Shown here: piece after piece, positions 5,006-57,160 of the stretch
Position numbering within the stretch: the first letter of the stretch is position 1
Layout: the number at the start of each line of letters is the position of its first letter
From: Mobula hypostoma
Taxonomy: Eukaryota
Direction of reading: 5' to 3'
Assembly (NCBI RefSeq): GCF_963921235.1
Contig: NC_086108.1
Coordinates: forward strand, 39,744,001-39,808,000
DNA length: 64,000 nucleotides
Translations under genes and position numbers: made by a program
The notes under the pieces: model-generated
What the model was told of the DNA's origin: nothing
Databases searched by the model: none
Seen by the model: the letters and a program-made list of their open reading frames with translations, nothing else

Positions 5006-5211
5006 TAAATAATCATCCACAAGAATCAATTTTGTTGTGATCCTCTGTTCCTGGTTGTGTATGCCATTTTTCTTGTGAAGCATGAGTGAGTTCCATAATG
5101 TGAAGTTGATGCCAAAAGAAATAGTTTTGAGCTTTTGAGTACATTGTATGTCTGATCTTTCAGTTAGACTGTGCTTTGAGGTTCTTCAATGAAATACTAA
5201 TGGTCAAATCT

Positions 5212-5333
5212 GTTACTTTCTCTTCTATCAGTTAGTCCTGACGAAGGGTCTAGGCCCAAAACGTCATCTGTACCTGTTCCTATAGATGCTGCCTGGCCTG
5301 CTGCGTTCACCAGCATTTTGTGTATGTGTTGCT
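5212..5333 (+). mobile_element. Penelope-like element 3' terminal fragment with degenerate hammerhead motif
   Basis: AGTC-CTGACGA-AGGGTCTAGGCCC-AAAAC-GTC at 5234-5265, followed by the conserved AGATGCTGCCTGGCCTGCTGCGTTCACCAGCA block shared with the GIY-YIG-bearing element at 24227-24971. Confidence 0.85.
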
Positions 5334-16541: not shown

Positions 16542-16689
16542 AATGAATGTACAGTGTAGTATCACTTACGGGAATTGGGACGACATCGAGCACACTGATG
16601 ATGGTGTGTTAGACTGACTTGTCGCAGGTTGGGATGGTGCAGTGGCCCCCACCCTCTGGGCCGCTGATTGATACATTGCCGCGAAGCAC

Positions 16690-16923
16690 GCAGGGGTAGC
16701 CGGGAGGCACACAGCACATCTTTAAGAAAAAAGCCGAAATAAACATGCTAATTAATTAGGTGCTGCCCAGCACGTAAATGTTGGCGCAGATCAGAGGCGA
16801 TTGCCGATTGCATCGGCACTGATCTGGGCCGACAATTACGTGCTAGGCGGCACCTAATTAATTAGCATGTTTATGTTGGCTTTTTTCTTAAAGATGTGCT
16901 GTGTGCCTCCCCGCTACCCCTGC
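16690..16923. repeat. Long imperfect palindrome (about 112-bp arms, about 10-nt loop)
   Basis: GCAGGGGTAGC...CTAATTAATTAGGTGC...GATCAGAGGCGAT pairs with ATCGGCACTGATC...GCACCTAATTAATTAG...GCTACCCCTGC. Confidence 0.93.
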
Positions 16924-17400
16924 ATTTTCCGCGAATCGGTACAGTATCTGTCTGGGGCCCGGGGGTTGGGGTGGTGGGACATGGGGGTGTTATCTCATCG
17001 TCGATCAGGGCAGGCAGCTCATCTTCTCCTATGACTGCCGACCTCGATGTTGAAGGTCGAGGTTCGTCGTCTGCTGTGGCTGATGTGGAAGGCTTGCTTG
17101 ACTGCTGAGCCTCACGCATTTTTATATCACACAGTTCTTTGTAAGGACTCAAAACATCCTGCAAATATCCCCTAAACCTACGTACCCTTTCAAAATTAAA
17201 GTGGTACTTTATCATTGCAGCGAAAGTCTCACGCAGTTGGTTCGCTTTCTGCATTCAGTTTCAATTATTATCCTTTCCTCTTCCAATTGCATCAGCTCTT
17301 CATCTATCAGTTCTTGGTCATGGGATGCCAAAACCTCTTCAACATCATCTTCGTCAGCTTCCACAAGCCAAACTCACTTCGTCCTTGCTTCGTTCACCAC
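16871..17400 (-). pseudogene. Tigger/TIGD-type transposase C-terminal remnant
   Basis: Minus-strand translations EADEDDVEEVLASHDQELIDEELMQLEEE and NFERVRRFRGYLQDVLSPYKEL match the acidic C-terminal region of Tigger transposases. No DDD domain retained. Confidence 0.75.
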
Positions 17401-19439: not shown

Positions 19440-21100
19440 CCCAAGCTGAGCATGTCGACCATCAACTTTTCTTCCAATTTCTGATCCATTTCTGACACCT
19501 TCCTTTCCTTTCTCAATCTCTGTCTCTGAAGACAGCTTATCTACCGCTATTATAAATCCATTGACTCTCACAGCTACCTGGACTATACCTCTTCCCACCC
19601 TGTTACTTGTAAAAAAAAAACCACTTCCTTTTCTGAATTCCTCTGTCTCCTCCACATCTGCTCTCAGACTGAGGCTTTTCATTCCAGAACTAAGGAGATG
19701 TCCTCCTTCAAAGAAAGGGGCTTCCCTTCCTCCTCCTCCTCCATCATCAACGCTGCCCTCAACCGCATCTCTTCCATCTCGCACAGGTTCTTGCCTCACC
19801 CCATCCTTCCACCACCCCACTAGGGATAGAGTTCCTCTCGTCCTCACCTACCACCCCACCAGCCTCTGCATCCTGCACATAGTTCTCCGTAACTTCCACC
19901 ATCTCCAGAAGGATCCTACCACCAAGGACATCGTTTCCTCCCCCCCACTTTCTGCTTTCTGCAGGTATTGCTTTCTACACGACTCCCTCCTACTGTCCAT
20001 TCGTGCCTCCCCACTGATCTCCCTCCTGGCACTAATCCTTGCAAACAGATCAAGAGCTACACCTGCCCCTACACCTCCTTCCTCACTACGATTCAGGGCC
20101 CCAAACAGTCCTTCCAGCTGAGGTGACACTTCACCTGTGAGTTTATATCCGATGCTCCTAGTGTGGTCTCCTGTATGTTGCTAAGACCTGATGCAGATTG
20201 GGAGACCACTTCACCAAGCACCTATGCTTCGTCTGCCATAAAAATCAAGTTCTCCCAGTGGCCAGTCATTTTAATTCCACTCCCCATTCCCATTCTGATA
20301 TGTCTGTCCATGGCCTCCTCTACTGTTGGTCACAATGAGGCCACATTCGTGTTGGAGGAGCAACACCTTGTATTCCACCTGGGTAGCCTCCAACCTGATG
20401 GCATGTCCCTCCCACCCCCCCACCTTTACCATTCCCCATTCCCACTTCCCTCTCACCTTATCTGCTTATCATCTCCCTTTGGTGCTCCTCCCCCTTTTTC
20501 CATAGCCTTCTGTCCATAAGACCATAAAATATAGGAAAAGAATTAGGCCATTTGGCCATCAAGTCTGTTCTACCATTCAATCATGACTAATCCTTTTTTT
20601 AAATAGTTGACATTTTGGGCCGAGACCCTTCATCAGAACTGGAGGAAAAAAGATGAGAAATCAGAGTAAGAAGGTGGGGGGAGGGGAGGAACCAATACAA
20701 GGTAGTAAGTGATAGGTGAAACCAGGAGGGGAGGAAGGGTGAAAGCTGGGAAGTCGATTAGTAAATGAGATAAAGGGCTGAAGAAGAGGGAATCTGACAG
20801 GAAAAGACAGAAGGCCATGGAAGAAAGAGAAGGTGTCCTCTCCTATCAGATTCCCCCTTCTCCAGCCCTGTATCTCTTTCACCAATCAACTTCCCAGCTC
20901 TTTACGTGACCCTCACCCCCCCCAACCCTGGTTTTAGCTATCACCTTGCAGTTCTTCCTCCCCAACCCCCACTTTCTTACTGATTCCTCATCTTTTTTTC
21001 CGGTCCTGATGAAAGATCTCGGCTCAAAACATTGACTGTACTCTTTCCTATAGATGCTGCCTGGCCTTTTGAGTTCCTCCAGCATTAGATGTTTATTGCT
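19440..21100 (+). mobile_element. Penelope-like element (Neptune type): RT C-terminus, Cys linker, GIY-YIG remnant, terminal repeat with degenerate hammerhead
   Basis: Frameshifted DSHSYLDYTSSHP, RDRVPLVLTYHPTS, PCKQIKSYTCPYT, EEQHLVFHLGSLQPDGM; CTGATGA...CAAAAC at 21006-21030. Interrupted at 20516-20833. Confidence 0.88.
20516..20833 (-). mobile_element. Composite insert: PLE terminal-repeat fragment ending at hammerhead motif, joined to a CR1 3' tail
   Basis: 20516-20600 is a CR1 3' end (CCATAAGACCATAA tail); 20603-20833 is PLE pyrimidine-rich repeat with CTGATGA...CAAAATGTC on minus. TGTCC flanks both sides (20511-15, 20834-38). Confidence 0.7.
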
Positions 21101-22596: not shown

Positions 22597-24324
22597 TAAT
22601 TGGTATTTGCCCTATAGTTATCTTTTGCACTCTGATTTATATGAATTAGGCCACTGTTCTAAATGGAAAATTGTTGGTTAATTTGAATTCTGATTCACGT
22701 TTATTTACATCAGTAAATGTTTTTGTGGACTTTTCAAATATCAGGTGAAAGCTGGATTAACAGTCTGTCCCATGCACATCATTGGATTGCTGAATCCATT
22801 ACTTACCCCCAAATATAACATGAAGATGTTACAAAAGGTGCACTAAAGTATAAACAAATATCTCATGGTAGGCGGTTTAACTGCTGCAAAGTAGTCATGA
22901 TGTTGCTATTACTGAGGCTGTGATAGGTTTGTGGAGGTTAGTTCAAGAATCGGATAGTTGAAGGGAACCCAATCTACATTTGTTCCTCCAGTACACAGGA
23001 GGCCTTTTATGATCAGTGAATGAGGTATGCTAGATTGGAAGAACTGTGAGTGATTTGCAGCTTCATCTGGAAGGGGGTTGGTGAGAAGAGGGGAGTTGAA
23101 TGTCTACCAGCTTTGGTCAAGGAAATTAACAATGAAGATGAAGTGCTGTATACATGCTGTAATTCTTTTGACTTATTGAGATAAAACTAAGATGTTTTAG
23201 TAATAAAAACTAATAGTGAGAGTTTTATTTTCATTTGTGCAATTAGACTTTGATGCACTAATTGTTTGGAATTATATGTTGTATCTTCAAAATAAGATGA
23301 ATTATCATCCAACTAAAACCTTTGGCAACATGATTGTAGCTAGGGTTTAAGAATGTCTGTTCCAGTACATGACAGATAAAACTGATTTCTTAGTTTCTGA
23401 GTTCTGCCAATTTAATTTTAGTTAGATTTTCAGGTTCAACAAAACATAATCAGCATCACACACAAAATACTGGAGGAATTCAGCCAGTCAGGCAGCATCA
23501 ATGAAGGGGAATAAACATTTGACATTTTGGGCTGAGGCCCTTCATCAGGACTGGAAAGGAAGTAGGCAGAAGCCAGAATAAGAAAGTTGGGGGTGGGGGG
23601 GGGGAGGAATGAATACTAGCTGCCAGCTGATAGATGAAATCAGGTGGGTGGGCGGGGGAAGGGGGGAATGAAGAAAGTAGCTGGGAGGTGATAGGTGGAG
23701 GAAGCAAAGGGCTGAAAAAGAGGGAATCTGATAGGAAATGACTGTGGAAGAAGGGGAAGGAGGCGGGACACCAGAGGGAGGTGATGGGCAGATGTAGAGA
23801 AGAGAAATGGGGTGATGGGAACCAGAATGGGGAATTGGAAAAAAGAGAAGGAAAAGGGAGAAATTATTGGAAGTTAGAGAAATCAATGTTCATGTAATCA
23901 GGTTGGAGGCTACAGAATTTGTAGCCTCATCATGGCAGTAGAGGAAGTCGTTAATCAACATCTCAGTCTGGGAATGGGAAGTCAAATTGAAATGGATGGT
24001 CACCAGGAAATCCCATCTTTTGTGGTGGATGGAGCGAAGGTGCGCGACAAAGTGGTCCCTCAATCCATAGTACGTTGGGTCTCCTCACCAGTGTCGAGCA
24101 GGCCACACTTCGAGTACTGGTTATAGAAGACCACCCCAACTAGACTCACAGGTGAGCTGTTGCCTCACTTGTGTTCCTCCAGCATTTTGTGTGTTTTGCT
24201 CAAGATTTCCAGCATCTGCAGAATCTAAACAACAGGAATTCTGCAGATGCTGGAAATTCAAGCAACATACATCAAAGTTGCTGGTGAACGCAGCAGGCCA
24301 AGCAGCATCTATAGGAAGAGGCGC

Positions 24325-24360
24325 AGTCGACGTTTCAGGCCGAGACCCTTCGTCAGGACT
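24325..24360 (-). ncRNA. Minimal type-I hammerhead ribozyme motif (intact core)
   Basis: Minus strand AGTC-CTGACGA-AGGGTCTCGGCCT-GAAAC-GTC-GACT: stem I AGTC/GACT, core CUGANGA and GAAA, stem II hairpin, palindromic ACGU in place of stem III, GUC cleavage triplet. Confidence 0.85.
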
Positions 24361-24654
24361 AACTGAAGGAAGAGTGAGTAAGGGATTTGAAAGCTGGAGG
24401 GGGAGGGAGAGATGCAAAATGATAGGAGAAGACAGGAGGGGGAGGGATAGAGCCGAGAGCTGGACAGGTGATAGGCAAAAGGGGATACGAGAGGATCATG
24501 GGACAGGAGGCCTAGGGAGAAAGACGGGGGGGGGGGTGACCCAGAGGATGGGCAAGAGGTATATTCAGAGGGACAGAGGGAGAAAAAGGAGAGTGAGAGA
24601 AAGAATGTGTGCATAAAAAGGAGTAACAGCTGGGGTACGAGGGGGAGGTGGGGC

Positions 24655-24948
24655 CTAGCGGAAGTTAGAGAAGTCAATGTTCATGCCATCAGGTTGGAGG
24701 CTACCCAGAAGGAATATAAGGTGTTGTTCCTCCAACCTGAGTGTGGCTTCATCTTTACAGTAGAGGAGGCCGTGGATAGACATGTCAGAATGGGAATGGG
24801 ATGTGGAATTAAAATGTGTGGCCACTGGGAGATCCTGCTTTCTCTGGCGGACAGAGCGTAGATGTTCAGCAAAGCGGTCTCCCAGTCTGCGTCGGGTCTC
24901 ACCAATATATAAAAGGCCACATCGGGAGCACCGGACGCAGTATATCAC
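24655..24948 (-). CDS. PLE GIY-YIG endonuclease domain (C-terminal fragment of a 5'-truncated element ORF)
   Basis: VIYCVRCSRCGLLYIGETRRRLGDRFAEH...PVATHFN...H...EEQHLIFLLGSLQPDGMN: GIY/YIG motifs with CxxC, catalytic Arg/Glu/Asn positions and His residues. Not an independent gene. Confidence 0.85.
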   Translation of the reverse strand: MIYCVRCSRCGLLYIGETRRRLGDRFAEHLRSVRQRKQDLPVATHFNSTSHSHSDMSIHGLLYCKDEATLRLEEQHLIFLLGSLQPDGMNIDFSNFR

Positions 24949-27164
24949 CCCAGTCGACTCACAGGTGAAGTGAATCTCCTGTGTTTAAAAATTGGCTTCA
25001 TTTTGTAGCCACAAACATAATTGCTCTGATTTTGAATTTATTTCTTCCTGGATACAAAAACTTGTTTAGAATTATTGCTGTACTATTTTAGGGAGATATG
25101 CACCACGTCTGAGCTTGTACCCTTATTTCTGTTGGTGACAGCTGCACTTAGAAACCAGCATGCAATGAAATACATGTTACCAATATTGACTAAATTTTTA
25201 ATGTCTAGCACAAGAAAAATTTAAGTTATTGTTTAATTAACAAGACTGATCATATGTGACTCCACAACAACTTTAACAAGAACTTTTAAAAGTAATTTGA
25301 TAGTTATATTGACATCTTTTAACTAAATGGATCATGCGAAAGTTTAAGCAACAGCTAAGCAAATTCTGTTGCGTATCTTAAAAGTGTCCTTGGTTTGCAT
25401 ATGAGAATTTGTACTGCTTGAACTGGGTATGTGTGATGAGACTGGCCCTTTAAAGGGCAGCTCCCACTAAGGATTTGTATTTGGCATGAGAAAAATTCCT
25501 AAACTAGACAGCTGAATATATTCCTCAAAGATGACAGCAGGATCAGGGGTCGGTTGTCATTTTGAATCATTTGGAAAGTTTGATTGTATTACATCTAAGT
25601 CTAAAATTCTTTGAATATTGCCATCATTTGTTAAGTTGTCATGTTACTTTTATTCCATAGGCATACACAATGTTAATTAAGTATTTAAATTTATTAAAAT
25701 CTGTTTTGTGCCCAGAGAACAAGTTTTGTATTTGAATCTATCATGAACCTTCTACTTGTGGAGACGAAATGTAATTTTGTTTGTTAGACTTGTGAAGAGA
25801 AAGTGCAAGGCAATAATTCTTATTTCGTGCTTGAAATGACTTGCAGTATCAACATGTTTGAAAGCTTCAATGTAATGAACAGTTGGTCAGGCATTTTGGA
25901 GCAGTCAGAAGCTTAGTGTTAGCTTGAATATTGAGACATTGTATGATATTTTGGCATTCCAAAGGAAAACAAATATAAAATGTTGAATTGTGTGCTATTT
26001 TCAATTTGCTGCTTTTTTTGATCTGAAGCATATTTATCAAATAAACATTAGCATTATGTTCATTTTAATAACCTTAGAAGAGCAGACAATCATACTAAGT
26101 GTTTTCTTGTTGCCTACTGTGAGTTATCAGCAAACATAAGCTGTAATTAGCATTCAGGCAGTATGTTTTCTGAGAACAATAATTTTGTTCAGTTTGTTTC
26201 ACGGCACCTTTGTGGGCGTGTGCCGTAATGGACTGTGGATGGAACACATTGTAACTTGATCTGTTTCAATTTAATCCCGAGAGCTAACAGATGAAGTATC
26301 AAGATGTGACTCAGGTCATTTGTCAGAAGTGCAGTGTTCAGTATTGTGGATAGAAGACTTGTGCCTATGTATGTTTCCAAGAGGATTCTATACAATGTTT
26401 CTGTGGAGCTTTTTCTTTTAATGTTGTCTAAGTATGAATCTCATAGTTGTGTTGGAATTGGAGCATTTGTGAATGGTTTGTAAACCAAACAATGAAACTG
26501 GAAAATGCAGTGAGGTCTAGGAGGTACAGAAGTAAATGTAATTACTACTAACAGTGTTAATACTGGCAATAGCAGGGAAATTGTTGATTTGAATATGTTG
26601 GATGGATCAGATAACAGTAACTGGTAACAGTAAATTAATTAGTTCAATGTGAAACCATATGTTTCATTTCCATGTGCAAAGAATATTAATGCAAGTTATT
26701 GCAGGTATTCTAATTTAATCATTTTGTTGCAAATGGTGTTTATTATAAGCAACTTAGCTTCAGTACCTTCTTTATTGCAATACTGACTTTTTTATTGTCT
26801 AAAGCAGTTAAGGACTTCCTCCTCTATGATAATGTAAATGTGAAACTGCCTGTGACTAGAGCAGAGGAATTAATGTTCAGATGCTAGGTCTAAAGGCTGA
26901 TTATTGAAATGTAATGTGGCTCAGAGTATTTGCCATCAGTGATTAAGGGAGCTAGATTGATTCCTTCAGAAGTAGCCTTTTTACAAAGTAGATTTGTTTT
27001 TTTTGTAAAACGTTTACATAAAACAATTAAACATATATTTCGTTTTTAGAGTAAAGCTAATGGTTAGATTTCTGTTGATTTGCACAACATTCTTGTGCGA
27101 GAAATTTTGCTGTCTGCAGTTTGAGATAAAGCCTCATTAACTTGGTAATATGACAGAAAGTAAC

Positions 27165-27377
27165 ACACATCAAAATTGCTGGTGAATGCAGCAGGCCAGG
27201 CAGCATCTCTAGGAAGAGGTACGGTCGACATTTCTGGTCAAGACCCTTCGTCCTGATGAAGTGTCTCAGCCCGAAATGTCGACTGTACCCCTTCCTAGAG
27301 ATGCTGCCTGGCCTGCTGCGTTCACCAGCAACTTTGATGTGAGTTGCTTGAATTTCCAGCATGTGCAGATTTCCTCG
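27165..27377. mobile_element. Fold-back (head-to-head) PLE terminal mini-element with hammerhead motif
   Basis: 14-bp TSD TGACAGAAAGTAAC (27151-64, 27378-91); about 88-bp inverted arms joined at GTC 27250-52; plus-strand GTC-CTGATGA...CGAAAT-GTC-GAC at 27250-27283. Confidence 0.92.
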
Positions 27378-27776: not shown

Positions 27777-30328
27777 TAATTACAAATAAGAACTCATTTC
27801 CAATTGAGATAACTCTTCATCATTCTTTCTTCAAAATCAATTGCAATAATTCTGAATGATAAAGAGCTATCTCAATTGGAAATGTGTTTGTAAGGATTAT
27901 TGTTTTATTGTCTGAATCCAGATGCCATGTGAATTTCAGCAGATCATAATCTTAACAGAGACATGAGAAATGGTTCCTTAGATTTTTAGTTCACCCCTTG
28001 ACAAATTGAGTTTTTCTTACTTACCATTTCTAGGACTGTTAAGTAGCTAGGTGCTGAGATTTTACAATATGTCTCTTTCACTGATATTTTCGGTCGTGAA
28101 GCTTATTTGGCAAAGCTGGTTGATCATATAGCTACCTTTTTATTTATTGTCAAGGTATTAAATAAGTTAATGAATTGTGGATATAGAATAGATAAAAGTC
28201 ATCCATGATAGATAGTGAAGCTGTAAACAAAACAATATATTATGCTTAATACACCAAGGATATCTTTTGGGATAAAAAGCATTTGAGCACTAGAAAAGTT
28301 ATGCTTTAGACTTGTAAAATGAGTGACAGTATTGATTTATATATTCCTTTGGCATTGATTGCTGGTGTTTGTTCAGCTTCCTTCTGTTTGAATTTTGGAT
28401 TTAAAGATCAATAATAATATTGTTTCACTTTTGGAAATACTAAAATTTAACCTTTGCAGTGTTTGGAAAGGTGAATTGTGGATAACATTCAGACCTGAAT
28501 ATCTAATCGCTGTGGGGGATTTCTTGCTCTTGTGAGGTAATGTCATTCCTGACATGGGAGGTCACTTTGCTTGGCCCGTGAGACTTGAGACTGTGAAAAC
28601 AATCTCAGTTTCTGGGCCCTCCACCTTGGTGGTTGTAAGAGTTGATTCTGAGACTTCAGGAAGTGGTTCTGACAGCTCTGGACACCTTTCCTCTCCATTT
28701 CTTGGCTCTTCACTTTCCTTTTTCTTCTAGTTTGTGCACCTTGATCCTGGGAAGGTCCATTTAGTTCAAGGGAGTATTCTCTTATTAATCCTTCTATTTC
28801 TCCCTTTATAATCTGATACCCTCTCGGTTTCCTCATCCACAACATCATCTGATAGATCCTCTGTTTTCATATCTTTATTGACCCCTTTCTTTTCGGTCTT
28901 CCATTCACTTTGCAGGCTTTTGTATCAACCTTTACAAGCAGCTTTTATTCTCCCACTTGAAGTTCATACAATAACATTAATGTACACAGATTAGATTCTG
29001 GTTCTTTATACGCAGAAAAGCCATATGCTTGCGACTTTCCTGTAGCTCCTTGAACTCTCTTCCAATTTAAAACCAAGCCATGGTTCACAAGTAACTGCCT
29101 GGTTAGCATATCAGAAGCTTTTTCAGATATGTTGCCTACAAAAACTGTTGGAGTCGGACCAGTATTTTCTTCACTTACTCACTTCCTCTGAGCAGCATGG
29201 TCTTTCCTTGGTCCAATATGCTTTCCAATCTGAGGCACAGAGACTGGGATCAACACCTGCTTGCTCTCTGTTACGCAATGGTTCTTGGTTTTCAGTATGG
29301 AAGTGGTTGTGGCAAAATCCAGTACTTTTCTTAATTTGATTTCAGTTGTCTCAATTTCAGGGGATGTGGCATATAAGTTATGGATGGATCTCCTTTCAAG
29401 TTGTAGTTGTCTGTCACTCACGACCTCAGAACGCCAGCTCTCCTGTATTACCACATGCAAGCCCAATGTGGCTTGTTGGTTGTGGTATTTCACTGTCATG
29501 AATGTCATTCCCACAGGAATGATCTTTTCTCCAGTATAAGTTCTTAGTTGGATATCTGGAGGCTTCAGTTTAGTATCTTTGAAATGCTGTTCAAACTAAT
29601 TTTGTGAAATAATTGAAACAGCTGAGTCAGTGTTGAATTCCATTTTAATTAATTTGCCATTCACTTCTGTTGTAAGCCATTTTGCTTGTCTACTATTAGT
29701 TTTCACATTGTAAAATCTCAAGGCTATTCAGTCCTGTGTCACTCATCATTATCAGATTTTTCATTAATAGCATGCAGATTAGTGCTCTTTTTGAAACTAC
29801 AACTTGACTTTTATCTTTTTCTCTTCCATGTGCAGTCCGTTTACTTTTGTCTACCCAACATGCTCTTTTGCATGTGTCTTAATTTGTTGCATTTTCGGCA
29901 AGTTTCACCTTTAAACCTGCATTGGTCTAGTGTTTGTGACCCTCTGCCACAATGGTAACACAATTTGTTCGGCCAGGCCAGTTTCTTTTTAGAGATTGCA
30001 ATTTTGTTCATACTCACTTTCATTCTTGACTGGAACTCAATGGTATCTCCCACCACTGTTTCTATTGGTGCAGCTATTGTAGCTGCTCCTTTAAAAGTAC
30101 GTTGTGCTTCAGTTAGGAGCTGTTTTTGTATACTTTTTTTTGTATACTTTTTTTTTGTAAGATTCCACAAGCTAAACAATTTCTCAATGCATAATTAAGC
30201 CCATTACCGAACTGACGATGCTCAGACCTCTTCAATTCAGTCAGGTATGCTGAAAAGGACTTCCCTTCCTTTCGATTCCGTGTATGAAACCTAAAGCATT
30301 CTGCAATCAACAATGGTTTCAGTTCTAA

Positions 30329-31819
30329 ATGTTCCTGCAATACTTCCACAATATCAGCAGAACTTATAACTATATCCCTTCCCCACATGAAACCACCATG
30401 GTGGGCTTCACAGCTGAACAGTTGAGAAGACAGCTGAAACGTCTCAACCCAAGCAAGGCTGCAGGACCGGATGGTGTCAGTACCAGGGTACTCAAAGCCT
30501 GTGCCCCTCAGCTATGTGGAGTACTTCGCCATGTATTCAACCTGAGCCTGAGGCTCCGGAGGGTTCCTGTGCTGTGGAAGACGTTCTGCCTTGTCCCTGT
30601 GCCGAAGACGCCGCGCCCCAGCAGCCTCAATGACTACAGACCGGTGGCATTGACCTCCCACATCATGAAGACCGTGGAGAGACTTGTTCTGGAGCTGCTC
30701 GGGCCTGTGGTCAGGCCACACTTAGATCCCCTCCAGTTCACCTACCAGCCCCGACTAGGAGTTGAGGATGCCATCGTCTACCTGCTGAACCATGTCTACG
30801 TCCACTTGGACAAGCCAGCGAGCACTGTGAGGGTCATGATTTTTGACTTCTCCAGTGTGTTCAACACCATCCGCCCTGCTGTGCTGGGGGAGAAGCTGAC
30901 AGCGATGCAGGTGGATGCTTCCCTGTTGTCACGGATTCTTGATTACCTGACTGGCAGACCACGGTATGTGTGCTTGCAACACTGTGTGTCCGACAGAGTG
31001 ATCAGCAGCACTAGGGCTCCACAGGGGACTGTCTTGTCTCCCTTTCTCTTCACCATTTACACCTCGGACTTCAACTACTGCACAGAGTCTTGTCATCTTC
31101 AGAAGTTTTCTGATGACTCTGCCATAGTTGGATGCATCAGCAAGGGAGATGAGGCTGAGTACAGGGCTACGGTAGGAAGCTTTGTCACATGGTGTGAGCA
31201 AAATTATCTGCAGCTTAATGTGAAAAAGACTAAGGAGCTGGTGGTAGACCCGAGGAGAGCTAAGGTACTCGTGACCCCTGTTTCCATCCAGGGGGTCATT
31301 GTGGACATGGTGGAGGTTTTCAAATACCTGGGGATACGAATTGACAATAAACTGGACTGGTCAAAGAACACTGAAGCTGTCGACAAGAAGGGTCCGAGCC
31401 GTCTCTATTTCCTGAGGAGACTGAGGTCCTTTAACATCTGCTGGACAATGCTGAGGATGTTCTACGAGTCTGTGGTGGCCAGTGCTATCATGTTTGCTGT
31501 TGTGTGCTGGGGCAGCAGGCTGAGGGTGGCAGACACCAACAGAATCAAGAAACTCATTCGTAAGGCCAGTGATGTTGTGGGGATGGAACTGGACTCTCTG
31601 ACGGTGGTGTCTGAAAAGAGGATGCTGTCCAAGTTGCATGCCATCTTGGACAATGTCTCCCATCCACTACATAATGTACTGATTGGGCACAGGAGTACAT
31701 TCAGCCAGAGACTCATTCCACCGAGATGCAGCACAGAGCGTCATAGGAAGTCATTCTTGCCTGTGGCCACCAAACTTTACAACTCCTCCCTTGGAGGGTC
31801 AGCCACCCTGAGCCAATAG
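30329..31819 (+). CDS. Open 496-aa reverse transcriptase ORF of Rex1/Babar copy B (no endonuclease domain; ATG from flank)
   Basis: Uninterrupted frame with KAAGPDGV, NDYRPVALTSHIMK, DFSSVFNTI, PQGTVLSPFLF, KFSDDSAI, FKYLGI and C-terminal domain. The first ~12 codons lie in antisense Gypsy sequence. Expression not shown. Confidence 0.75.
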   Translation: MFLQYFHNISRTYNYIPSPHETTMVGFTAEQLRRQLKRLNPSKAAGPDGVSTRVLKACAPQLCGVLRHVFNLSLRLRRVPVLWKTFCLVPVPKTPRPSSLNDYRPVALTSHIMKTVERLVLELLGPVVRPHLDPLQFTYQPRLGVEDAIVYLLNHVYVHLDKPASTVRVMIFDFSSVFNTIRPAVLGEKLTAMQVDASLLSRILDYLTGRPRYVCLQHCVSDRVISSTRAPQGTVLSPFLFTIYTSDFNYCTESCHLQKFSDDSAIVGCISKGDEAEYRATVGSFVTWCEQNYLQLNVKKTKELVVDPRRAKVLVTPVSIQGVIVDMVEVFKYLGIRIDNKLDWSKNTEAVDKKGPSRLYFLRRLRSFNICWTMLRMFYESVVASAIMFAVVCWGSRLRVADTNRIKKLIRKASDVVGMELDSLTVVSEKRMLSKLHAILDNVSHPLHNVLIGHRSTFSQRLIPPRCSTERHRKSFLPVATKLYNSSLGGSATLSQ

Positions 31820-39481: not shown

Positions 39482-39700
39482 GAGACATGAGACTGCAGAT
39501 GCTGGAATCTGGAGCAAAAATTAAACTGTTGGAAGGATGTTTCATGTTGAGAGTCTGCATCAGGACTGAGGGTATAGACTAGGGAAGATTGCCACTATGT
39601 AGAAGCGAGGTGGGGTGGGGATGGGTGGGAGGAAAAAAAAATTTAAACGAATATGGGGAAGGACTAGTGATAGAGACTCGTAGGTGATAGGTTATAACCA
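39482..39700 (-). mobile_element. Old PLE terminal fragment with decayed hammerhead motif
   Basis: GAGACTGCAGATGCTGGAATCTGGAGCAA tail; minus-strand CAGTC-CTGATGC...TGAAACATC at about 39536-39568. Confidence 0.65.
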
Positions 39701-42276
39701 GATATTATCTGTGTCCTTCGAGTTTATCTTTGTAGAACTTACAAAGTCCATGGATATGTAATTAAAGCTTACCATGTGCTCCAGTACATCAGTTGATTGC
39801 ATAAGTTTGTGTGTGCAAATGATCTTTTCTATCTTACACTTGATATTATCTTTATTCTGTTGCTATAACTCCATAGGTGAGTTGATTTGGGCAACAAGTC
39901 ATTGGTCATTAAGGAATTGTTTGATATTCATCCATTATTAAGCAAAGTTGTTCTGATGGGAAAAATTCTGGGTTTATCAGCATTTTAAAAGGTTGAATGA
40001 GTTGTACTCCAAGAATAATCTTGAACATGAACATTTTTAAGGCTTTGAGGATGGATACATATCTGATGAAGTCAATGTTTCTTTTGATATTTGGGTTTAT
40101 AAATCTTGTAGAAAGCCAAGCAATGGGATTTGGAACAAGATGGATAATTTAACTTTAAAGACACATTAACTCTCTAGCATTTCCTTCAGTTTGCAAACAA
40201 TTTTTAAAAGTTCAGTAATAATTTCCTTGGTTCCTTTCTTGTATGTTTGATCAGTTATTTCCTGTGATGGTCATAAATTGCCTTGACTATAATGGTGACT
40301 ATGTCTATTAATGGTAGTTTATTTGGAGATGGTCAGGCATATAACTGAGTAGCCCAACTTTTCTTGCTGTAGATTTGGTTTCAACAGACGCAAGCTGCAA
40401 AAATGACTTAGTTAATTCTGTATTTTTCAATGTAGAATATGTTTCATAAATTTAGAACCCTAATCCATTTCACTTAAAATACTGGAAACCCACATGATAT
40501 CACACAATTTTAAACTGTGAATTAATTTGGCTATTAATTAAATATTTACGATAATAGGATCAATTGGGTAGGGATTTTTACACAAAATAATTGAATTTGA
40601 AGCAGAATGTTATTAAAAAATTTGGTACCGTTGTGTGATTCATAAAGTCTCCACTTTGAACATGACACTTGTTTGATTTTAATCCTTTTGCTCTATCATG
40701 CACAATTATAGAAAATAGCTTAATGATTATTGTCTTTTATACATTCAGCATCTGCATTATCACTTAGGTATGTTTGTGGTCTGTGACCACAACTAACTAC
40801 AACAAGATTCTAATTCTAACTGCTTTAAATGAATGCTTTTCTCAAAATATTTGTAATAGTTCTATATTGCCTTAAATCCGAAGTTATCTTTTATGCTTTC
40901 TTTTTCTGTATAAGGTTTTTCTGGAAAAACATATAATATGATGAGCAAAGAACTGTAACACAGGTCACCTGTAAAACTAAATGCTTCAACTGCTTTGTCA
41001 CCAAAGACAATGGTGGAAGATGTGTTACATAGTGGCCTAAAGCAACAACAAAACCAAGTAAATTTTAAGAGACCACTTTTTGTGTAGTTTCATGTAGATT
41101 GATTTTATTAAATGGAAAGTTTAAAAAAAAGTCAAACTGAATTTGTTTTATACTGCAACTTAATATTTTTATTGCAATCATAGAAATAAAAAACGTCTGA
41201 AATGACACAGTGAGATTAAGATTAGTGATTCATACAATTTAATTATAGATGTAATTTAGTTAAAGTGTATTATAGATCCTTCATTTGATTGTTTCACCAT
41301 TTCTTAGGACATTGAGGGGTTGGCATAATAATACCATAAGACACTGGAACAGACCATTTGGCCCACTGAGTCTGCTCTGCCATTTGATCATGGCTGATCC
41401 ATTTCCCTGTCAATCCAGTTCTCCTGCTTTCTCCCCGTAGCTCCTCATGCTCGACTATTTAAGAACCTATCAATCTCCACTTTAAATACACTCATTGACC
41501 TGGCTTCCACAGCAACCTGTGGCAGTGAGCTCCAAACATTTACCGTCTGGCTATAAAAAATTTCTCCTCATCTCCATTCTAAATGGTTGTCCCCTCTATC
41601 TTGGGGTTCCTCTCATCCTAGACTCTCCCACTATAGGAAACAGCCTCTCCACATCCATTCTATCTAGGCCTTTCAGTATTCAATAGGTTTCATTGAGATC
41701 CCCATCCATTTTTTCTAAATTCCAGCAAGTATAGACATAGAACCATTAAATGCATTTCAATCCCAGAATAATTTTCGTTAGCCGCCTTTGAGCCCGCTCC
41801 AATGTAAGCACGATGTTAGCACATGCTTTTTTAGGTAAGAGGCCCCAAACTGCTCACAATACTCCAAATGAGGCCTCACCAGTGAATTTTAAAGCCTCAG
41901 CATTACATCCTTGCTTTATTTTTTTCCTAGTCTTCTCAAAATGAATGCTAACATTACATTTGCCTCCCTCACCACTGACTCAACCTGCAAGTTAACCTTT
42001 AGAGAATCCTGCACAAGGACTCCGAAGTCCCTTTGCACCTCGGATTTTTGAATATTCTCCCTGTTTAGAAAAAATTCTATGCTTTTATTCCTTCCACCAA
42101 AATGTATGACTGTACACTTTCCAACACCATATTCCATCTGCCTTTGTTCAATCTTGCAATCTAAGTCCTTCTGCAGCTTTCTTGTTTCCTCAACACTTCC
42201 TGACCCTCCACCTATCTTTGTATCATCCACAAACTTGGCCACAGCCGTGAATTCCATCGTCTAAATCAATGACATA

Positions 42277-42802
42277 CGTGGGGTGATTGCTAAGTTTGTG
42301 GCCTAAGGTAGAAGGAGTCAATTTTAGAAAACCTAGCATATTTATTTTTCAACATAGTCCCCTCCTACATTTACACACTTAGTTCAGCGGTCGTGGAGCA
42401 TACGGATCCCTTCTTTGTAAAAGTCGGTGTCTTGGACCTCCAGAAAGTGGTCCATAGCAGGGGTGATTGATAAATTCGTGGCCTAAGGTAGAAGGACATG
42501 AGTTATACAGCTCTCGTTACACGCACATGCAGTTCAACTCTTTTTGAGTGATTATGCAGGAAGTTTGAAATTAATAACTCATCTCCTTCCACCTTCGGCC
42601 ATGAACTTATCAATCACCCCGCTGTGGACCACTTTCTGGAGGTCCAAGACATCGACTTCTACAAAGAAGGGATCCGTATGCTCCACGACCACTGGACTAA
42701 GTGTGTAAATGTAGGAGTGGACTATGTTGAAAAATAAATGTGCTAGGTTTTCTAAAATTGACTCTTTGTACCTTAGGCCACAAACTTATCATTCACCCCT
42801 TG
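42277..42802. mobile_element. Fold-back mariner-derived MITE (526 bp, about 230-bp inverted arms)
   Basis: TA flanks (42275-76, 42803-04); arms 42277-42506 and 42574-42802; 42621-42737 translates to the mariner transposase C-terminus AVDHFLEVQDIDFYKEGIRMLHDHWTKCVNVGVDYVEK*. Confidence 0.93.
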
Positions 42803-44315
42803 TACAATGTAAAAAGAAGCAATCCCAGCACCAAGCCCTGTGGAACTCCACTAGTCACCACCAGCAGCCAATCAGAAAAGGCTAACTTTATTCCTAACTT
42901 TTTGCCTCCTGCCAAACAGGCAATGCTCTTGCCATGCTATTATCTTTCCTGTAATACCATGGGCTCTTATCTTACTAAGCAGCCTTTTGTGTGACACCTT
43001 GTCAAAAGCATTTTGAAAATCCGAGTACATGACATCCACCAATTCTCCTTTGTCAATTCTGCTTGTTATTTCCTCAAAGAATTCTAATAGGTTTGTCACG
43101 CATGATTTTCGCTTGAAGAAAGCATGCTGACTTTGGCCCATTTTATCTTTTGTTGCCAAGTACCCTGAAACCTCTTCCTTAACAATTGACTCCAGCGAAC
43201 TTCTAACCACTGAGGTCAGGCCTATAATTTCCTTTCTTCTGCCTCTCTCCTTTCTTGAACAGAGGAGTGACATTTGCAATTTTCCAGAAATCTAGAACCA
43301 TGCCAGAATCCAGAAGATCATTACTAATGCCTCCACAGTCTCTTCAGATACCTCTTTCAGAACCCAGGGGTGTAGTCCATCTGGTCCAGGTAACTTAGCC
43401 ACCTTCAGACCTTTCAGTTTCTTAAGTGCCTTCTTCCTCGTAATAGCAATTGCACTCACTTCTGTGTTCCGACACTCTCGAACTTCTAGTATACTGCTGT
43501 GTGTTCCACAGTGAAGCCTGATGCAAAATACTTATTCAGTTTGTCTGCCATTTCCTTGTCCTGCATTACTACCTACCAAGCGCCATTTTCCAGTGGTCTG
43601 ATATCTATTCTTGCATGTTTTTACTCTATATATCTGAAAAAGCTCTTGATATCCTCTTTGATATTATTGGCTAGCTAACCTTCATACTTCATCTTTTCCA
43701 TCCTTATGGCTTCCTTAGTTGCCTTCTGTTGGTTTTTAAAAGCTTCCCAATCCTCTAACTTCCCACTATTTTTGCTCTATTATGTTTTCTCTTTTGCTTT
43801 TATGTTGGCTCTGACTTCCCTTGTCAGCTACAGTTGTGTCATCCTGTCGTTAGAATACCACTTCAGGATTTATTTATCCTGTGCCTTTCAAATTGCTCCC
43901 AGAAACTCCAGCTATTGTTGCTCTGATGTCAGCCTTGCTAGTGTTGCCTCCCAGTCAAATTTGGCCAGCTTATCTCTTATGCCTCTGTAATTCCCTTTAC
44001 TCCACTGTAATGCATTCCACTGTAATACTGATGCATGTGATTTTTAGCTCCTCCCTCTCAAATTGCAAGGTGAATTCTATCATGTTAAGGATTCCTTTAC
44101 TATAAGCTCCCTCATCAAATCTGATTCATTACACAACACAAATCTGGAGTAGCTGATCCCCTAGTAGACTCAACCACAAACTGCTCTTAACAACCTCATT
44201 TCATAGATATTCTATAAATTCTCTCTCCTGGGAACCAAAAGCAGCAGCAACCTGATTTTCCCAATCTAGCTGCATATTGTGATCCCCATGACTATCGTAA
44301 CATTGCTCTTTTGAC

Positions 44316-44489
44316 GCAAACAACAGGAATTCTGCAGATGCTGGAAATTCAAGCAACATACATCAAAGTTGCTGGTGAACGCAGCAGGCCAAGCAGCATC
44401 TATAGGAAGAGGCGCAGTCGACGTTTCAGGCCGAGACCCTTCGTCAGGACTAACTGAAGGAAGTCCTGACGAAGGGTCTCGGCCTGAAA
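44316..44489 (-). mobile_element. Young 174-bp PLE mini-insertion: tail + intact hammerhead + inverted partial hammerhead
   Basis: 10-bp TSD CTCTTTTGAC (44306-15, 44490-99); 44318-44463 identical to 24227-24372; inverted AGTCCTGACGAAGGGTCTCGGCCTGAAAC at 44462-44490. Confidence 0.93.
44416..44451 (-). ncRNA. Minimal type-I hammerhead ribozyme motif (intact core)
   Basis: Identical to 24325-24360: AGTC-CTGACGA-stem II-GAAAC-GTC-GACT on minus strand. Confidence 0.85.
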
Positions 44490-44968
44490 CTCTTTTGACA
44501 TGCTTTTCCTATTTCCTGTTGTAATTTGTAGCCCCATTCTGGCTGCTGTTTGGAAGTTTGTGTAAAACTCCCATCAGGTTCTTTTTATCCTATCAGTTCC
44601 TTTGCTCTACCCACAACAATTCAACATCTTACAATCCTATATCACCATTTTCTAAGGATTTGATTTCATTTTTGCCAACAGTGCCATGCCACCCCCTCTG
44701 CCTGATTGTGTATCCTTGGATGTTAAGCTTCCAACTATAGTCTTCTTTCAGCCACAACACAGTGATGCCCACAACATCATACCTGCCAACCTCTAACTGT
44801 GCTGCAAGAACATCTACCCTTATTCTGTATACTGCGTGCATTTAAGTATAATGCCTTCATTCCTATATTTATCACTATTTAAAATTCTGTCCCCTTGTTT
44901 CACTGCAACTCACTCCACTGACACCTAATTTGCCTGATCATCTGCTTGTCCTTTCTGACAGTCTCACT

Positions 44969-49242: not shown

Positions 49243-49449
49243 TCACAGGAGATTCTGCAGATAGGTGTTGGATATCTTGAGAACACAAACTGAAGTCAGG
49301 CAACATCTATGGAGGGGTATAACGGTTGACGTTTCAGGTTGAGGCTCTTCATCAGTACTCCTGAAGGACCTTAGCCCAAAACATCGACTGTTTATTCCTC
49401 TCCTTAGATGCTGCCTGACCTGCTGAGTTTTCCAGCATTTTTGTGTGAT
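49243..49449. mobile_element. Older fold-back PLE terminal mini-element with two opposed hammerhead-derived motifs
   Basis: Minus arm with tail and CTGATGA...TGAAACGTC (about 49324-49359); plus arm TGAAGGACCTTAGCCCAAAACATCGACTG...AGATGCTGCCTGACCTGCTGAG. No clear TSD. Confidence 0.8.
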
Positions 49450-50636
49450 ACATTCATAAATAATGATGCTGTGACTATGTTTGTGTTCCTGGCCAGTTTG
49501 TAATTCTCTTTCAGAAAAGGTTGTATTAATTCTGATGTTTTTGGTTGGCCTATATCTCATAATGTGATGTCTGTTCATGTAAGAAGAAACAAAATAGCAC
49601 TTAATTTTAATAGGCTGGTTCTTGTTGAATCTTGCTGCACCTGATTATTTGACCTGTGGCTTTTGAATAGTTTCTGAATGCTTTTTGCTTTCAGCAACAC
49701 AAACTACTGTACTGAATTTAATGTAAATAATTAACTACATTTAAAGATTAATTAAAACATTTAAAAATCATTGAAGATGGAGTAAACAATTTTATTTCCT
49801 TTTCCCTATTACAACAATCATCTCACCGGCTCTTCAAGGCTTTGCCGCTCTCAGAACGATTCCCCACAAAATTTGCCATATCTCTTCTATTTTCCTGTAA
49901 CCTATTTTCTTTCACATAACCATTAATGCCACTCCGATTCTCCTACCATCTATGTCCACTCGGACTGAGTACCTAATTAATTTCTTCACTTTTACCCTTT
50001 TAGTCGGAGATTCCCTGATTTTGTTAATGGTTTGTGAATGTCCGGAACATTTAATCCCCATCCCTAATTCCTCAGTGGATGCATGTGCCTATTGAATATG
50101 CTCTTCTAGATTCCTTCCCCCCCCTCCCCCCCCCTATTATATATACTATATATTCTGAGTTCTGAATCCCTTTTGTATGTTGTGGAGTGCTGTTGTCACA
50201 ATGCATTTGATTCAGGTAAATGTCATTCTGTCATTACCCCTCTGCAAAACAATAAGCAAGCACACCCCACACATATGATTGCAAGAAAAAAGTTTGTGAA
50301 CCCTTTACAATTGCCTGGTTTTCTGCATTAATTTTCATAAAATGTGATCTGATCTTCATCTACGTCACAATAATAGACAAACACAATCTGCCTAAACTAA
50401 TAACACACAACAATTGTACCACTTCTCGTCAATACCGAGTTCACCATTTAAACAATCACAGTCTTGGTTCAAAAAAGTATGGGAACCTCTGGGCTAATGC
50501 CTTCTACAAAAGCTATTTGGAATCAGGTGTTTCATTCAATAAGTTGAGATTAGGGGTGTGGGTTGTTGAGGTGCTCTGCCCTATAAAATGGACAGCACAA
50601 AGTTAGGTTACTAAGAAAGATCTGTTTATGTGCACC

Positions 50637-51619
50637 ATGCCTTGATCAAATCAACTTTCAGAGGACCTTAGAAGGAGAATTATAGAGATGCATGAAGCTG
50701 GAAAAGGCTATAAATGCACTTCTGAAGACCTGAGTGGTAATCAGTCCATAGTAAGAGAAATTGTATACAAATGGAAGAAATTCAGTACTGTTGCTTCTCT
50801 CATTAGGAGAGGGCATCCTGCAAAGATTACACCAAGAGCACAACATGCAATGCTGAAAGAGGTGAAAAAGAACCCAAGGGTAATAGCAAAAGACCTGCAG
50901 AAATCTCTAGAACTTGCTAAAATCTCTGTTCTTGTGCCCACTATAAGTAAACACTGAACAAGAATAGTGTTCATGGAAGGATCCGCAGAGGAAACTATTG
51001 CTCTCCAAAATAAAAAAAAACATTGCTGCACATTTCAGGTTTGCAAAAGTCCACCTGAATGTTCCACAATACTTCTGGGACAATGTTCTGTGGCCACAAT
51101 GGACAAATATTGAACTCTTTGGCGGAAATGCACACTGCTGGATTTGGAGGGGAAAAGGGCACTGTACACCAAAACCTCATCCCAACTGGGAAGCATGGTG
51201 GAAGGAGCATCATGGGTTGGGGCTGCTTTGCTTTCTCAGGGCCTGAACAGCTTGCAATCGTTGAGGGAACAATGAATTCAAAATTGTATCAAGACATTTT
51301 ACAGGAGAATGTCAGGGTAGCGGTCTGTCACCTGAAGCTTAATAGAAGTTGGATGATGCAACAAGACAAGGATCTGAAACACAAAAGTAAATCTTGGAGT
51401 AGCCAAGTCAGAGTCTAGCTTTAACCCAATTGAGATGCTGTGGCATGACCTGAAGAGGGCTGTTCATGCAAGGTGTCCCAAAAATATTGATGAACTTAAA
51501 CTGTTTGCCATGGAGGAATGGTCTAAATTCCTACTCGCCATTATGTAAGTCTGATTAGCAGCTACAGGAAATGATTGGTGGAGGTTATTGTTGCTTACGG
51601 AGGTTCTACCAGTTATTAA
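50637..51619 (+). pseudogene. Tc1 transposase pseudogene
   Basis: MP*SNQLSEDLRRRIIEMHEAGKGYK, GHPAKIT (GRPR-like), FWDNVLW, KHGGRSIMGWGCF, MQQDKD.KH, NPIEMLW; stops, frameshifts and a deletion in the DDE region. Confidence 0.9.
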
Positions 51620-51694
51620 ATACAAGGGTTCACATACTTTTTCTAGCCTGGGCTGTGAGTGATTAAGCAATGTGTTCAATAAAGGCACGAAAAG

Positions 51695-56265: not shown

Positions 56266-57064
56266 GTAGCATACAACGTGATTGATACTGGAATTTGCTG
56301 CAAGTTAGGACATGGGGAGGAGAGATAGAATGAATGACTCAGACTTCCCAGAAGTTTGTTGAAACTATCAGTTCTTCAGTTAACAGGAGAGTGAACATGA
56401 GCTTCAGAAACTGTTGGGGTGAGATAGAGCCAGGCAAAAGTATGTAGGTCCAAATAAGTGGTTAGAAACTAGAACAGTGCTGCATAGAACCTTTCCTGCT
56501 ACATAGCCTTTCATTGTTCTTTTATCTGTCTGCCTAAGAGTTTATTAAATGTACCTAATGTATCTGCCTCTACCATTACCCCTTGCAGTGCATTCTATGC
56601 ATTTACCACACTCTGTAAAAGAAAAACTACTATCTCTGACATTTCCCCACCACATACCTTTGTCCAGTCACCATATAAGTATGTTATCTGATATTAGCCA
56701 TTACCACTGCGGTGGGGGGGGGGGGGTTGCTTGTTGTCCACTTTATCTATGCCTCTTATCATCTTATACAACTCTATCAAGTTTCCTGTCTTCCTTCTTC
56801 ATTACAAAGAGAAAAGGTCTAGCTTGCTCAATCTTTCTTTGGAAGACATGTTCTCTAATCCAGGTAGCATCCTGGTAAATCTACTGTGCACTGTCTGTAA
56901 AGCTTCTGCATCCCTCGTGTAATGAGGTTACCAGAACTAAATACAATACTCCCAAGAGTGATCGATCTAGAGTTTTATAGAGTTGCAGCATTACCTTGTG
57001 GATCTTGAACTCAATCCCCCGACTAACAAAAGGCCAGCACACCCCCATACACTTAATTTGCATG

Positions 57065-57160
57065 CAACACACATAAATGCTGAAGGAACGCAGCAGGCCA
57101 GGCAGCATCTATAGGAAGAGGTACAGTCGACGTTTTGGGCTGAGACCCTTCGCCAGGACA
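57065..57160 (-). mobile_element. 96-bp PLE terminal mini-insertion beginning at the hammerhead motif
   Basis: 11-bp TSD TAATTTGCATG (57054-64, 57161-71); minus strand GTC-CTGGCGA-AGGGTCTCAGCCC-AAAAC-GTC-GAC (core mutated). Confidence 0.9.

Follow-up and report, generated by a model that had tools for sequence, protein, structure and literature searches.

The motif at positions 24325 to 24360, on the minus strand of the 64-kb stretch of Mobula DNA analysed here (the window), is by the features that we tested a minimal type-I hammerhead of the kind carried by Penelope-like elements (PLEs), and its catalytic activity is a prediction. The explanation that best accounts for the data overall, and which we consider likely, places this ribozyme in a young, 5′-truncated PLE copied from uncut RNA, with a probable RNA start just upstream of the motif. 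The motif class itself has already been published (Cervera & De la Pena 2014); the interest here lies in the copy number, in the recovery of an intact element that is probably active, and in a map of the insertion junctions.

Read directly from the minus strand, the core consists of CUGACGA (24356-24350), GAAA (24336-24333) and CGUC (24332-24329), the remainder being a stem I arm (24360-24357), stem II with its loop (24349-24337) and GACU (24328-24325). When the C of CUGA (24356) is numbered +1, the predicted cut falls after +28, between 24329 and 24328. The initial annotation had reported an intact minimal hammerhead here, and its sequence and predicted cut site stand as written. Its assignment of the motif to the PLE type is likewise borne out. 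Indeed, the type-I order CUGANGA, GAAA, UH is present, helix I is short (4 bp, extended to 5 bp in the fold by a U.G pair), one unpaired A lies between positions 9 and 10.1, ahead of a 4-bp stem II with two G.U pairs, a palindromic ACGU replaces helix III, whose loop is absent, and full-length elements carry the motif in both repeats. Folded alone, a 41-mer forms the 5-bp stem I and the 4-bp stem II with an ordinary energy (z −0.93), and some core bases pair with the CGUC that precedes the cut. Position 10.1-11.1 is G.U in this copy and in the youngest subfamily, and G-C in the 16,946 copies of the C11.1 variant set and in the older subfamily majorities. A G10.1-C11.1 pair is highly conserved in PLE hammerheads, where it lies outside the descriptor (PMC4209133; here and below, what is cited by accession or DOI refers to excerpts of the source). 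An Rfam scan of the window returned 19 matches at E ≤ 10, none of them to a hammerhead family; the microRNA matches among them (mir-15, mir-16 and others) were rejected, being far under the gathering scores, with several on inverted repeats. Two long inverted repeats occur in the window, at 42275-42804 and 16680-16933, with arms of 188 nt and 122 nt that are unrelated to the hammerhead tail.

The ribozyme lies within a 747-bp copy (24227-24973, minus) that is 97.6% identical over its length to the full-length locus L061. In minus-strand order this copy comprises the C-terminus of a GIY-YIG endonuclease (24658-24973, open to its stop codon; Pfam PF01541, scoring above the curated cut-off at E 1.9e-5), a 3′ UTR rich in pyrimidines, the hammerhead and a long tail. 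The pyrimidine-rich stretch directly 5′ of the ribozyme (24363-24377) forms the upstream edge of the 5′-end hotspot described below, and 24227-24262 is an optional tail segment of about 35 nt between two 3′ end points (about +95 and +130). The insertion target was the tail of an older two-armed PLE copy (23452-24228), whose own motif, at 23552 on the minus strand, has lost G12; this tail picks up again after 24973, with a short GAATCT duplication seen by eye.

The full-length loci L061, L062, L063 and L066 carry a motif at each end of a frame of 1,043 codons (1,064 in L066), and the two motifs of L061 are 3,512 bp apart. The frame combines a reverse transcriptase (RT) with a C-terminal GIY-YIG domain (RVT_1 E 3.3e-5; GIY-YIG E 0.001; neither reaches its curated cut-off), and its translation contains a DKG motif and, before the endonuclease, a zinc-finger-like linker CxxxxCxxC. 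A DKG motif and a C-x2-5-CxxC linker ahead of the endonuclease characterize the Neptune-type layout, which Nematis shares (PMC8557442). We assign the element to the Neptune type from this domain layout and not from tree placement. The frame has 1,211 homologues, those listed being mostly RT-bearing, and the closest named protein among the matches listed comes from the shark Chiloscyllium punctatum (72%). The frame-start junction is carried by 344 copies and the whole 1,043-codon frame is kept in 6 of 20 loci picked irrespective of frame length, and the family is therefore probably still active. Pairing of full-length loci gave 22 loci with paired motifs. The element shows a partial-tandem pseudo-LTR, an inverted 5′-truncated arm and an optional tail of 30-40 bp; in most full-length loci the partial tandems, 25 to >1,300 bp long, lie upstream of the 5′ motif. 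A common 5′ boundary at the endonuclease start proved to be an artefact of the query edge. The match to L061, the GIY-YIG domain and the intact full-length loci together uphold the earlier description of the carrier element as a young GIY-YIG PLE.

About 13 related motifs had been noted in the window. A profile built from the focal motif and fetched loci recovers all 13 named positions as family members (12 of them at E ≤ 6.4e-8), and the reversed window used as control gave no match below E 1.9. The relationship thus holds for every one, but CUGANGA, GAAA and UH are retained together in only four (24356 minus, 27253 plus, 44447 minus and 49355 minus). The remaining motifs have lost G12 or the 5′ core, or are cut short, and most of the core-broken ones carry G12 to A, a CpG transition. 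The density of motifs in the window, which had been singled out as notable, is ordinary for this genome, with four core matches against 2.9 expected per 64 kb (P 0.33).

Three of the window loci are head-to-head pairs. The youngest (44318-44490, with a 10-bp target duplication) has an intact minus-strand motif identical to the focal one and a plus-strand arm that breaks off after GAAAC. In a middle-aged mini-insertion (27155-27375, 13-bp target duplication) the plus core is intact within a predicted hairpin of −158 kcal/mol and the minus arm is without C3-U4; in an old pair (49294-49443) the minus core is intact with decayed stems, and the plus arm is degenerate. An old PLE remnant running from the RT thumb to the endonuclease (19481-21100, 77% identical to L061) holds G12-lost motifs at 20640 minus and 21003 plus. 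Solo tails are found at 5204-5327 (plus, by structure and profile search, with a G12-lost motif) and at 57061-57159 (minus), the latter a 100-bp tail that begins 3 nt upstream of the core, has A6 and G12 broken and is flanked by an 11-bp target duplication. The most weakly matching motif (39536-39568, minus, profile E 0.0045) is highly decayed and has lost A9.

The window also holds repeats and gene remnants of other kinds. A decayed, frameshifted processed pseudogene of an RRM protein (28546-29178, minus; Pfam RRM_1, E 4e-4), which we take to resemble RBM25, adjoins a frame resembling an LTR-element fragment (29182-29595). Two related LINE RT fragments lie on the plus strand at 30329-31819 and 385-1568, the first of which retains a 496-codon open frame (RVT_1, E 2e-22), and a Tc1/Sleeping-Beauty-like transposon remnant with inverted ends occupies 50448-51666 (HTH_SB E 1e-13; DDE_3 weak).

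Genome-wide, a core pattern that sets no stem requirement finds 156,260 matches (about 45 per Mb), against 1,153 for the reversed-pattern control. The inner 31-mer alone has 39,897 exact copies (control 0), and the decayed set with G12 changed to A has 10,824. Across the subfamily majorities (young, n=187; middle, n=76; old, n=37; and a fourth group of 4), positions −4 to +32 are constant except for +20, loop II and the CpG-decay columns, and both flanks differ. Because the motif is constant between subfamilies whose flanks differ, these comparisons suggest that the motif as a whole is under selection in active lineages and decays freely once inserted, the core decay falling at CpG sites. The very large, multi-subfamily repertoire proposed earlier is therefore real, and the check suggested with it, that the core should be kept while loop positions drift, comes out in its favour between subfamily majorities.

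Is the cut site used in forming new copies? We mapped both ends of 100 young copies chosen by a tail word downstream of the cut, the motif itself not being required; these copies are the first listed on contig C1 and not a random draw, the filter under-counts truncated copies, and those that have T at −26 escape the pattern. The 3′ ends fall into two clusters, near +95 and +130. As for the 5′ ends, five of 100 fall at +29 to +36 and six of the remaining 95 at +9 to +28, while 40 of 89, from 32 insertions, fall at −21 to +8, where 2.8 were expected from the upstream rate. Farther upstream, as far as −1,000, the rate drops about 18-fold, to about 0.1% per nt. The cut site is read through in 95 of the 100 copies. 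Therefore, most young copies were reverse-transcribed from RNA that was uncut at the 5′ ribozyme, or cut and re-ligated. A second subfamily behaves in the same way, with 27 of 88 ends at −21 to +8 and 3 of 100 at +29 to +37 (by eye, among the rows listed, which again come first on contig C1).

No pile-up of genomic 5′ ends at the cut site was found among the 100 young copies, a single end lying exactly at +29 by script and two by eye, and no row beginning at the cut site was seen by eye among the 100 frame-start rows listed. A weak residual excess is nevertheless detectable in the cut zone (five ends at +29 to +36 vs 0.9 expected, P 0.002). Copies ending at +24 to +37 number 207 after the filter and about 750 in all, some 4%; plain-flank ends make up 30 of 100 listed, with 5 to 6 exactly at +29 against 2.1 expected (P 0.06 to 0.02, by eye). 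It is possible that a small fraction of copies, well below 1%, stems from cut RNA. As a side observation, one and the same non-PLE sequence precedes the PLE tail at C1:170457 and at C1:2960828, joined to it at +37 in both, which hints at a chimeric repeat family.

What, then, causes the hotspot at −21 to +8? Length-limited fall-off of the RT can be rejected, as the stopping point does not shift with tail length: the 5′-end medians are +1 for short-tail arms (n=23) and −5 for long-tail arms (n=25), and a length limit predicts a 35-nt shift in the opposite direction. We favour an RNA start as the cause, with a hairpin as its main rival. By eye, initiator-like words place an A at −19 and at −8, in a stretch that can also be read as a 3′ splice site; an initiator-like TCACT has been noted in a rotifer pseudo-LTR (PMC3846280). 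Furthermore, the −21 to −11 shoulder of the hotspot holds 12 of 61 ends in the family with the upstream initiator-like word vs 3 of 64 in the family in which the word is missing from many copies (Fisher P 0.013; 0.04 when ends at −23 are counted).

In the mechanism that we propose, the element protein would prime at one of two sites, about 95 or about 130 nt downstream of the motif start, and reverse transcription would proceed toward an RNA 5′ end placed at the initiator-like words 8-19 nt upstream of the core. Run-off at this end would yield the 100-150-bp solo and head-to-head mini-elements. The ribozyme would be kept by selection only in active lineages and, by analogy with other PLEs, its cleavage would require a dimer or the protein of the element. 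A predicted hairpin would mask the ribozyme where the upstream sequence is present.

That same hairpin offers another cause for the hotspot. With upstream sequence present, −19 to −7 is predicted to pair with the core, at a hairpin probability of 0.85-0.90 and over the same interval as the hotspot. The ends could then mark a roadblock, formed by structure or by protein, instead of an RNA start: either the −19 to +12 hairpin, acting by RT pausing or by fold-back of the cDNA, or splicing factors bound to a 3′ splice site ending at −7 or −3. We think this possible, though we lean clearly away from it. A pyrimidine tract and an AG adjoin helix I in all subfamilies, the intron end of the Drosophila virilis Penelope maps to helix I (PMC4209133, PMC2377424), and the two arms of inversions usually stop at nearly the same place, as a fixed obstacle would have it. 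However, the hairpin is kept in both the young and the middle subfamilies, yet their −21 to −11 shoulders differ. Its advantage over shuffled upstream sequence is only modest (5.3% of 150 shuffles mask the core equally). Among further observations on inversions, the arms of L130/L131 and of L232 share private substitutions, those of L258, L261 and L285 stop hundreds of bases upstream at points no more than about 30 nt apart, and inverted insertions usually combine one long-tail with one short-tail arm.

A variant of the roadblock adds a switch: splicing would remove the masking arm and turn the ribozyme on, so that only unspliced RNA is copied. Stems I and II are indeed predicted to form (at 0.6-0.7) in RNAs that start at −6 or −8, and, if true, the switch would explain intron retention in PLEs. 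We also regard it as a lesser possibility. Among the rows listed, no common upstream exon was seen by eye at −6 or −2 junctions, no spliced genomic copy was seen by eye, and a matching donor site did not emerge.

An RNA start upstream of the motif, the reading that we prefer, leads to a further proposal, which we advance tentatively and hold to be doubtful. The mini-elements could be integrated 'strong-stop' cDNAs: the RT would prime at the 5′ repeat-ORF junction, stop at the RNA start 8-19 nt upstream and be followed by strand transfer, the cDNA jumping to an RNA 3′ end trimmed at the cut site by the downstream hammerhead, with the shared −19 to +28 stretch serving as a retrovirus-like R region. 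If this were so, PLE hammerheads would gain a job, 3′ end formation, and pseudo-LTR regeneration would be explained. The two repeats of a locus are closer to each other than the between-locus median in 18 of 21 usable loci (L298 was dropped as mis-paired; L293 and L295 did not pair), but only in about 5 of the 21 does the strictly nearest repeat come from the same locus. This homogenization fits strand transfer, circles and tandem read-through alike.

The circle model (Cervera & De la Pena), argued in the discussion of PMC4209133, holds that a tandem transcript is cleaved at both ends and the monomer circularized, so that the RT runs round a circle; it thereby predicts read-through of the cut site and attributes partial tandems to more than one turn. 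The partial tandems seen in most full-length loci and the closeness of within-locus repeats speak for it, and circles that were cut and re-ligated would also read through the cut site. Against this, an endless template gives no sharp step at −21 without an added roadblock, the own-locus repeat is mostly not the strictly nearest, and in the Anolis system no reads at the cut were found (PMC11167929, in its excerpted text). We judge the model unlikely, both as a route to the copies and as the source of the read-through and partial tandems.

The possibility had also been raised that the dispersed motifs cut host pre-mRNA if the region is intronic. The intronic setting is likely. A plus-strand exon 59 kb beyond the window end (L078:8817-8957) matches NEK7 from residue 19 (E 4e-22), and a 21-codon plus-strand exon with a Met start and a donor end lies 10 kb past the window end (L074); we located the latter from a start motif that is presumably that of NEK7. 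A CpG island with a donor-like site stands 23 kb before the window (L071:6800-7500) and, we infer, belongs to the same gene. Because these two exons and the CpG island flank it, the window is likely part of NEK7 intron 1, with the gene on the plus strand; its first two introns would be about 97 kb and 48 kb long. Across 164 kb, the unmasked DNA shows on its plus strand T over A of +0.051 and G over C of +0.057. No host exon was found within the window by a Pfam scan of 241 of 247 unmasked frames; a RECK-like match at 48229 (E 0.0027) was rejected as it had no PDB match. A strict splice-site scan of the window gave no convincing exon and had little power, as it also missed both NEK7 exons. Elsewhere in the NEK7 interval, two adjacent antisense VWA-domain frames separated by a stop (L074:7817-8272, minus; E 5e-11 and 3e-11) are probably a pseudogene fragment.

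Nevertheless, cutting of the host transcript at this locus is unlikely, because the focal motif is antisense to NEK7 and each sense motif is either broken or trapped in a hairpin. Of the five in the window, those at 5233, 21003 and 49354 are G12-lost or degenerate, that at 44466 is cut short and that at 27253 lies in the predicted hairpin. The focal motif is thus probably inert for the host gene. More generally, we find it very unlikely that the dispersed motifs work as ribozymes on host pre-mRNA, as dimers of neighbouring copies or in trans. The 156,260 core-intact motifs give scope for such cutting, and in the NEK7 interval the intact cores divide 4 antisense to 1 sense, as expected under selection against sense copies. 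However, this bias is not significant (P 0.38; 12:8 for all motifs, P 0.50), intact partners on one strand lie 20 kb from each other, head-to-head copies are predicted to be trapped in hairpins, and cores decay freely once inserted. In addition, an active core shared between two copies is predicted to cost 14-20 kcal/mol in a nearest-neighbour linker model that ignores tertiary contacts, which agrees with the low dimer activity reported in PMC4209133 and the protein dependence in PMC11167929.

The initial annotation had also called the mini-element forms notable; their junctions do not support a separate amplifying form. As these junctions vary between copies, each mini-element is a short cDNA of independent origin, whether single or head-to-head, and the mini-elements do not make up a separate family. 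That they are a non-autonomous, MITE-like or retrozyme-like family amplifying from its own master copies is thus highly improbable: about half of the young copies are ≤150 bp per arm and bear target duplications, and one locus holds 4.1 tandem motif-bearing units of 310 bp, but the junctions differ among the 100 rows listed, the few recurrent ones falling on short self-complementary words. The array in question (L286:974-2236, on C2 near 157.8 Mb) has units that are 99% alike, each with a motif and the frame start, and is possibly a newborn retrozyme-like array where dimers could form.

The Mobula motif resembles the minimal hammerheads of metazoan PLEs (PMC4209133), among whose carriers fish Neptune elements are named, in its type-I core, its 4-5-bp helix I, the unpaired base before helix II, the palindrome at 15.2-16.2, its presence in both repeats, its mostly solo occurrence and the placement of inverted pairs on opposite strands. 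Its copies are highly uniform, as in D. virilis. It differs in its 4-bp helix II and, in the youngest subfamily, in the G.U at 10.1-11.1. In the same source the single motif is inactive and the dimer weakly active, and about 9,000 motifs are counted in Xenopus tropicalis and about 4,000 in the coelacanth, against 156,260 here under a different descriptor. Our literature search, which covered the titles and abstract openings of openly accessible papers, turned up none pointing to such motif numbers in cartilaginous fishes.

With the PAc Poseidon of Anolis carolinensis (Frangieh et al. 2024, PMC11167929), for which cleavage is described as protein-assisted and dispensable for insertion in vitro, uncut RNA being the main substrate, the Mobula element shares two RT starts that give a 30-40-nt tail, an uncut RNA template and a hammerhead at the repeat-ORF junction. 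An optional PLE tail of about 30-40 bp is also described in PMC8557442. It differs in a Neptune-type linker, CxxxxCxxC, in the position of the motif, all of which precedes the likely start codon, and in a 5′-end hotspot just upstream of that motif, no such hotspot being reported in the excerpts on PAc Poseidon. Titles and abstract openings of openly accessible papers likewise yielded no pointer to a PLE 5′-end hotspot or to strand transfer in PLEs. The D. virilis Penelope (Schostak et al. 2008, PMC2377424), which has a TATA-less promoter within its pseudo-LTR, is alike in its partial-tandem layout and in the regulatory signals that adjoin helix I. There, transcription begins about 120 nt upstream and a 75-nt intron extends as far as helix I, whereas the start proposed here would lie 8-19 nt upstream.

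Animal non-LTR retrozymes (PMC7229834; bioRxiv 10.64898/2026.07.22.740005) are similar in their very high copy number, their dimer-type hammerheads and their origin from PLE repeats. In the axolotl, 126,247 motifs correspond to about 4.5 per Mb vs about 45 per Mb here, the descriptors being different (PMC7229834). Retrozymes are tandem arrays, those of the axolotl being canonical and giving circular RNAs, whereas the Mobula copies are dispersed truncation products, solo or head-to-head in the window and arranged in an array at the one locus elsewhere.

The role of PLE hammerheads and the regeneration of the pseudo-LTR are stated as open questions in the excerpts of PMC8557442 and PMC2377424. 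Both can be approached in this genome, where a vertebrate Neptune-type element that appears to be active has left many intact copies and >150,000 insertion junctions. These junctions show templates uncut at the 5′ ribozyme, suggest that either a fixed obstacle or an RNA start lies just upstream of it, and make the cut, circle and strand-transfer models directly testable.
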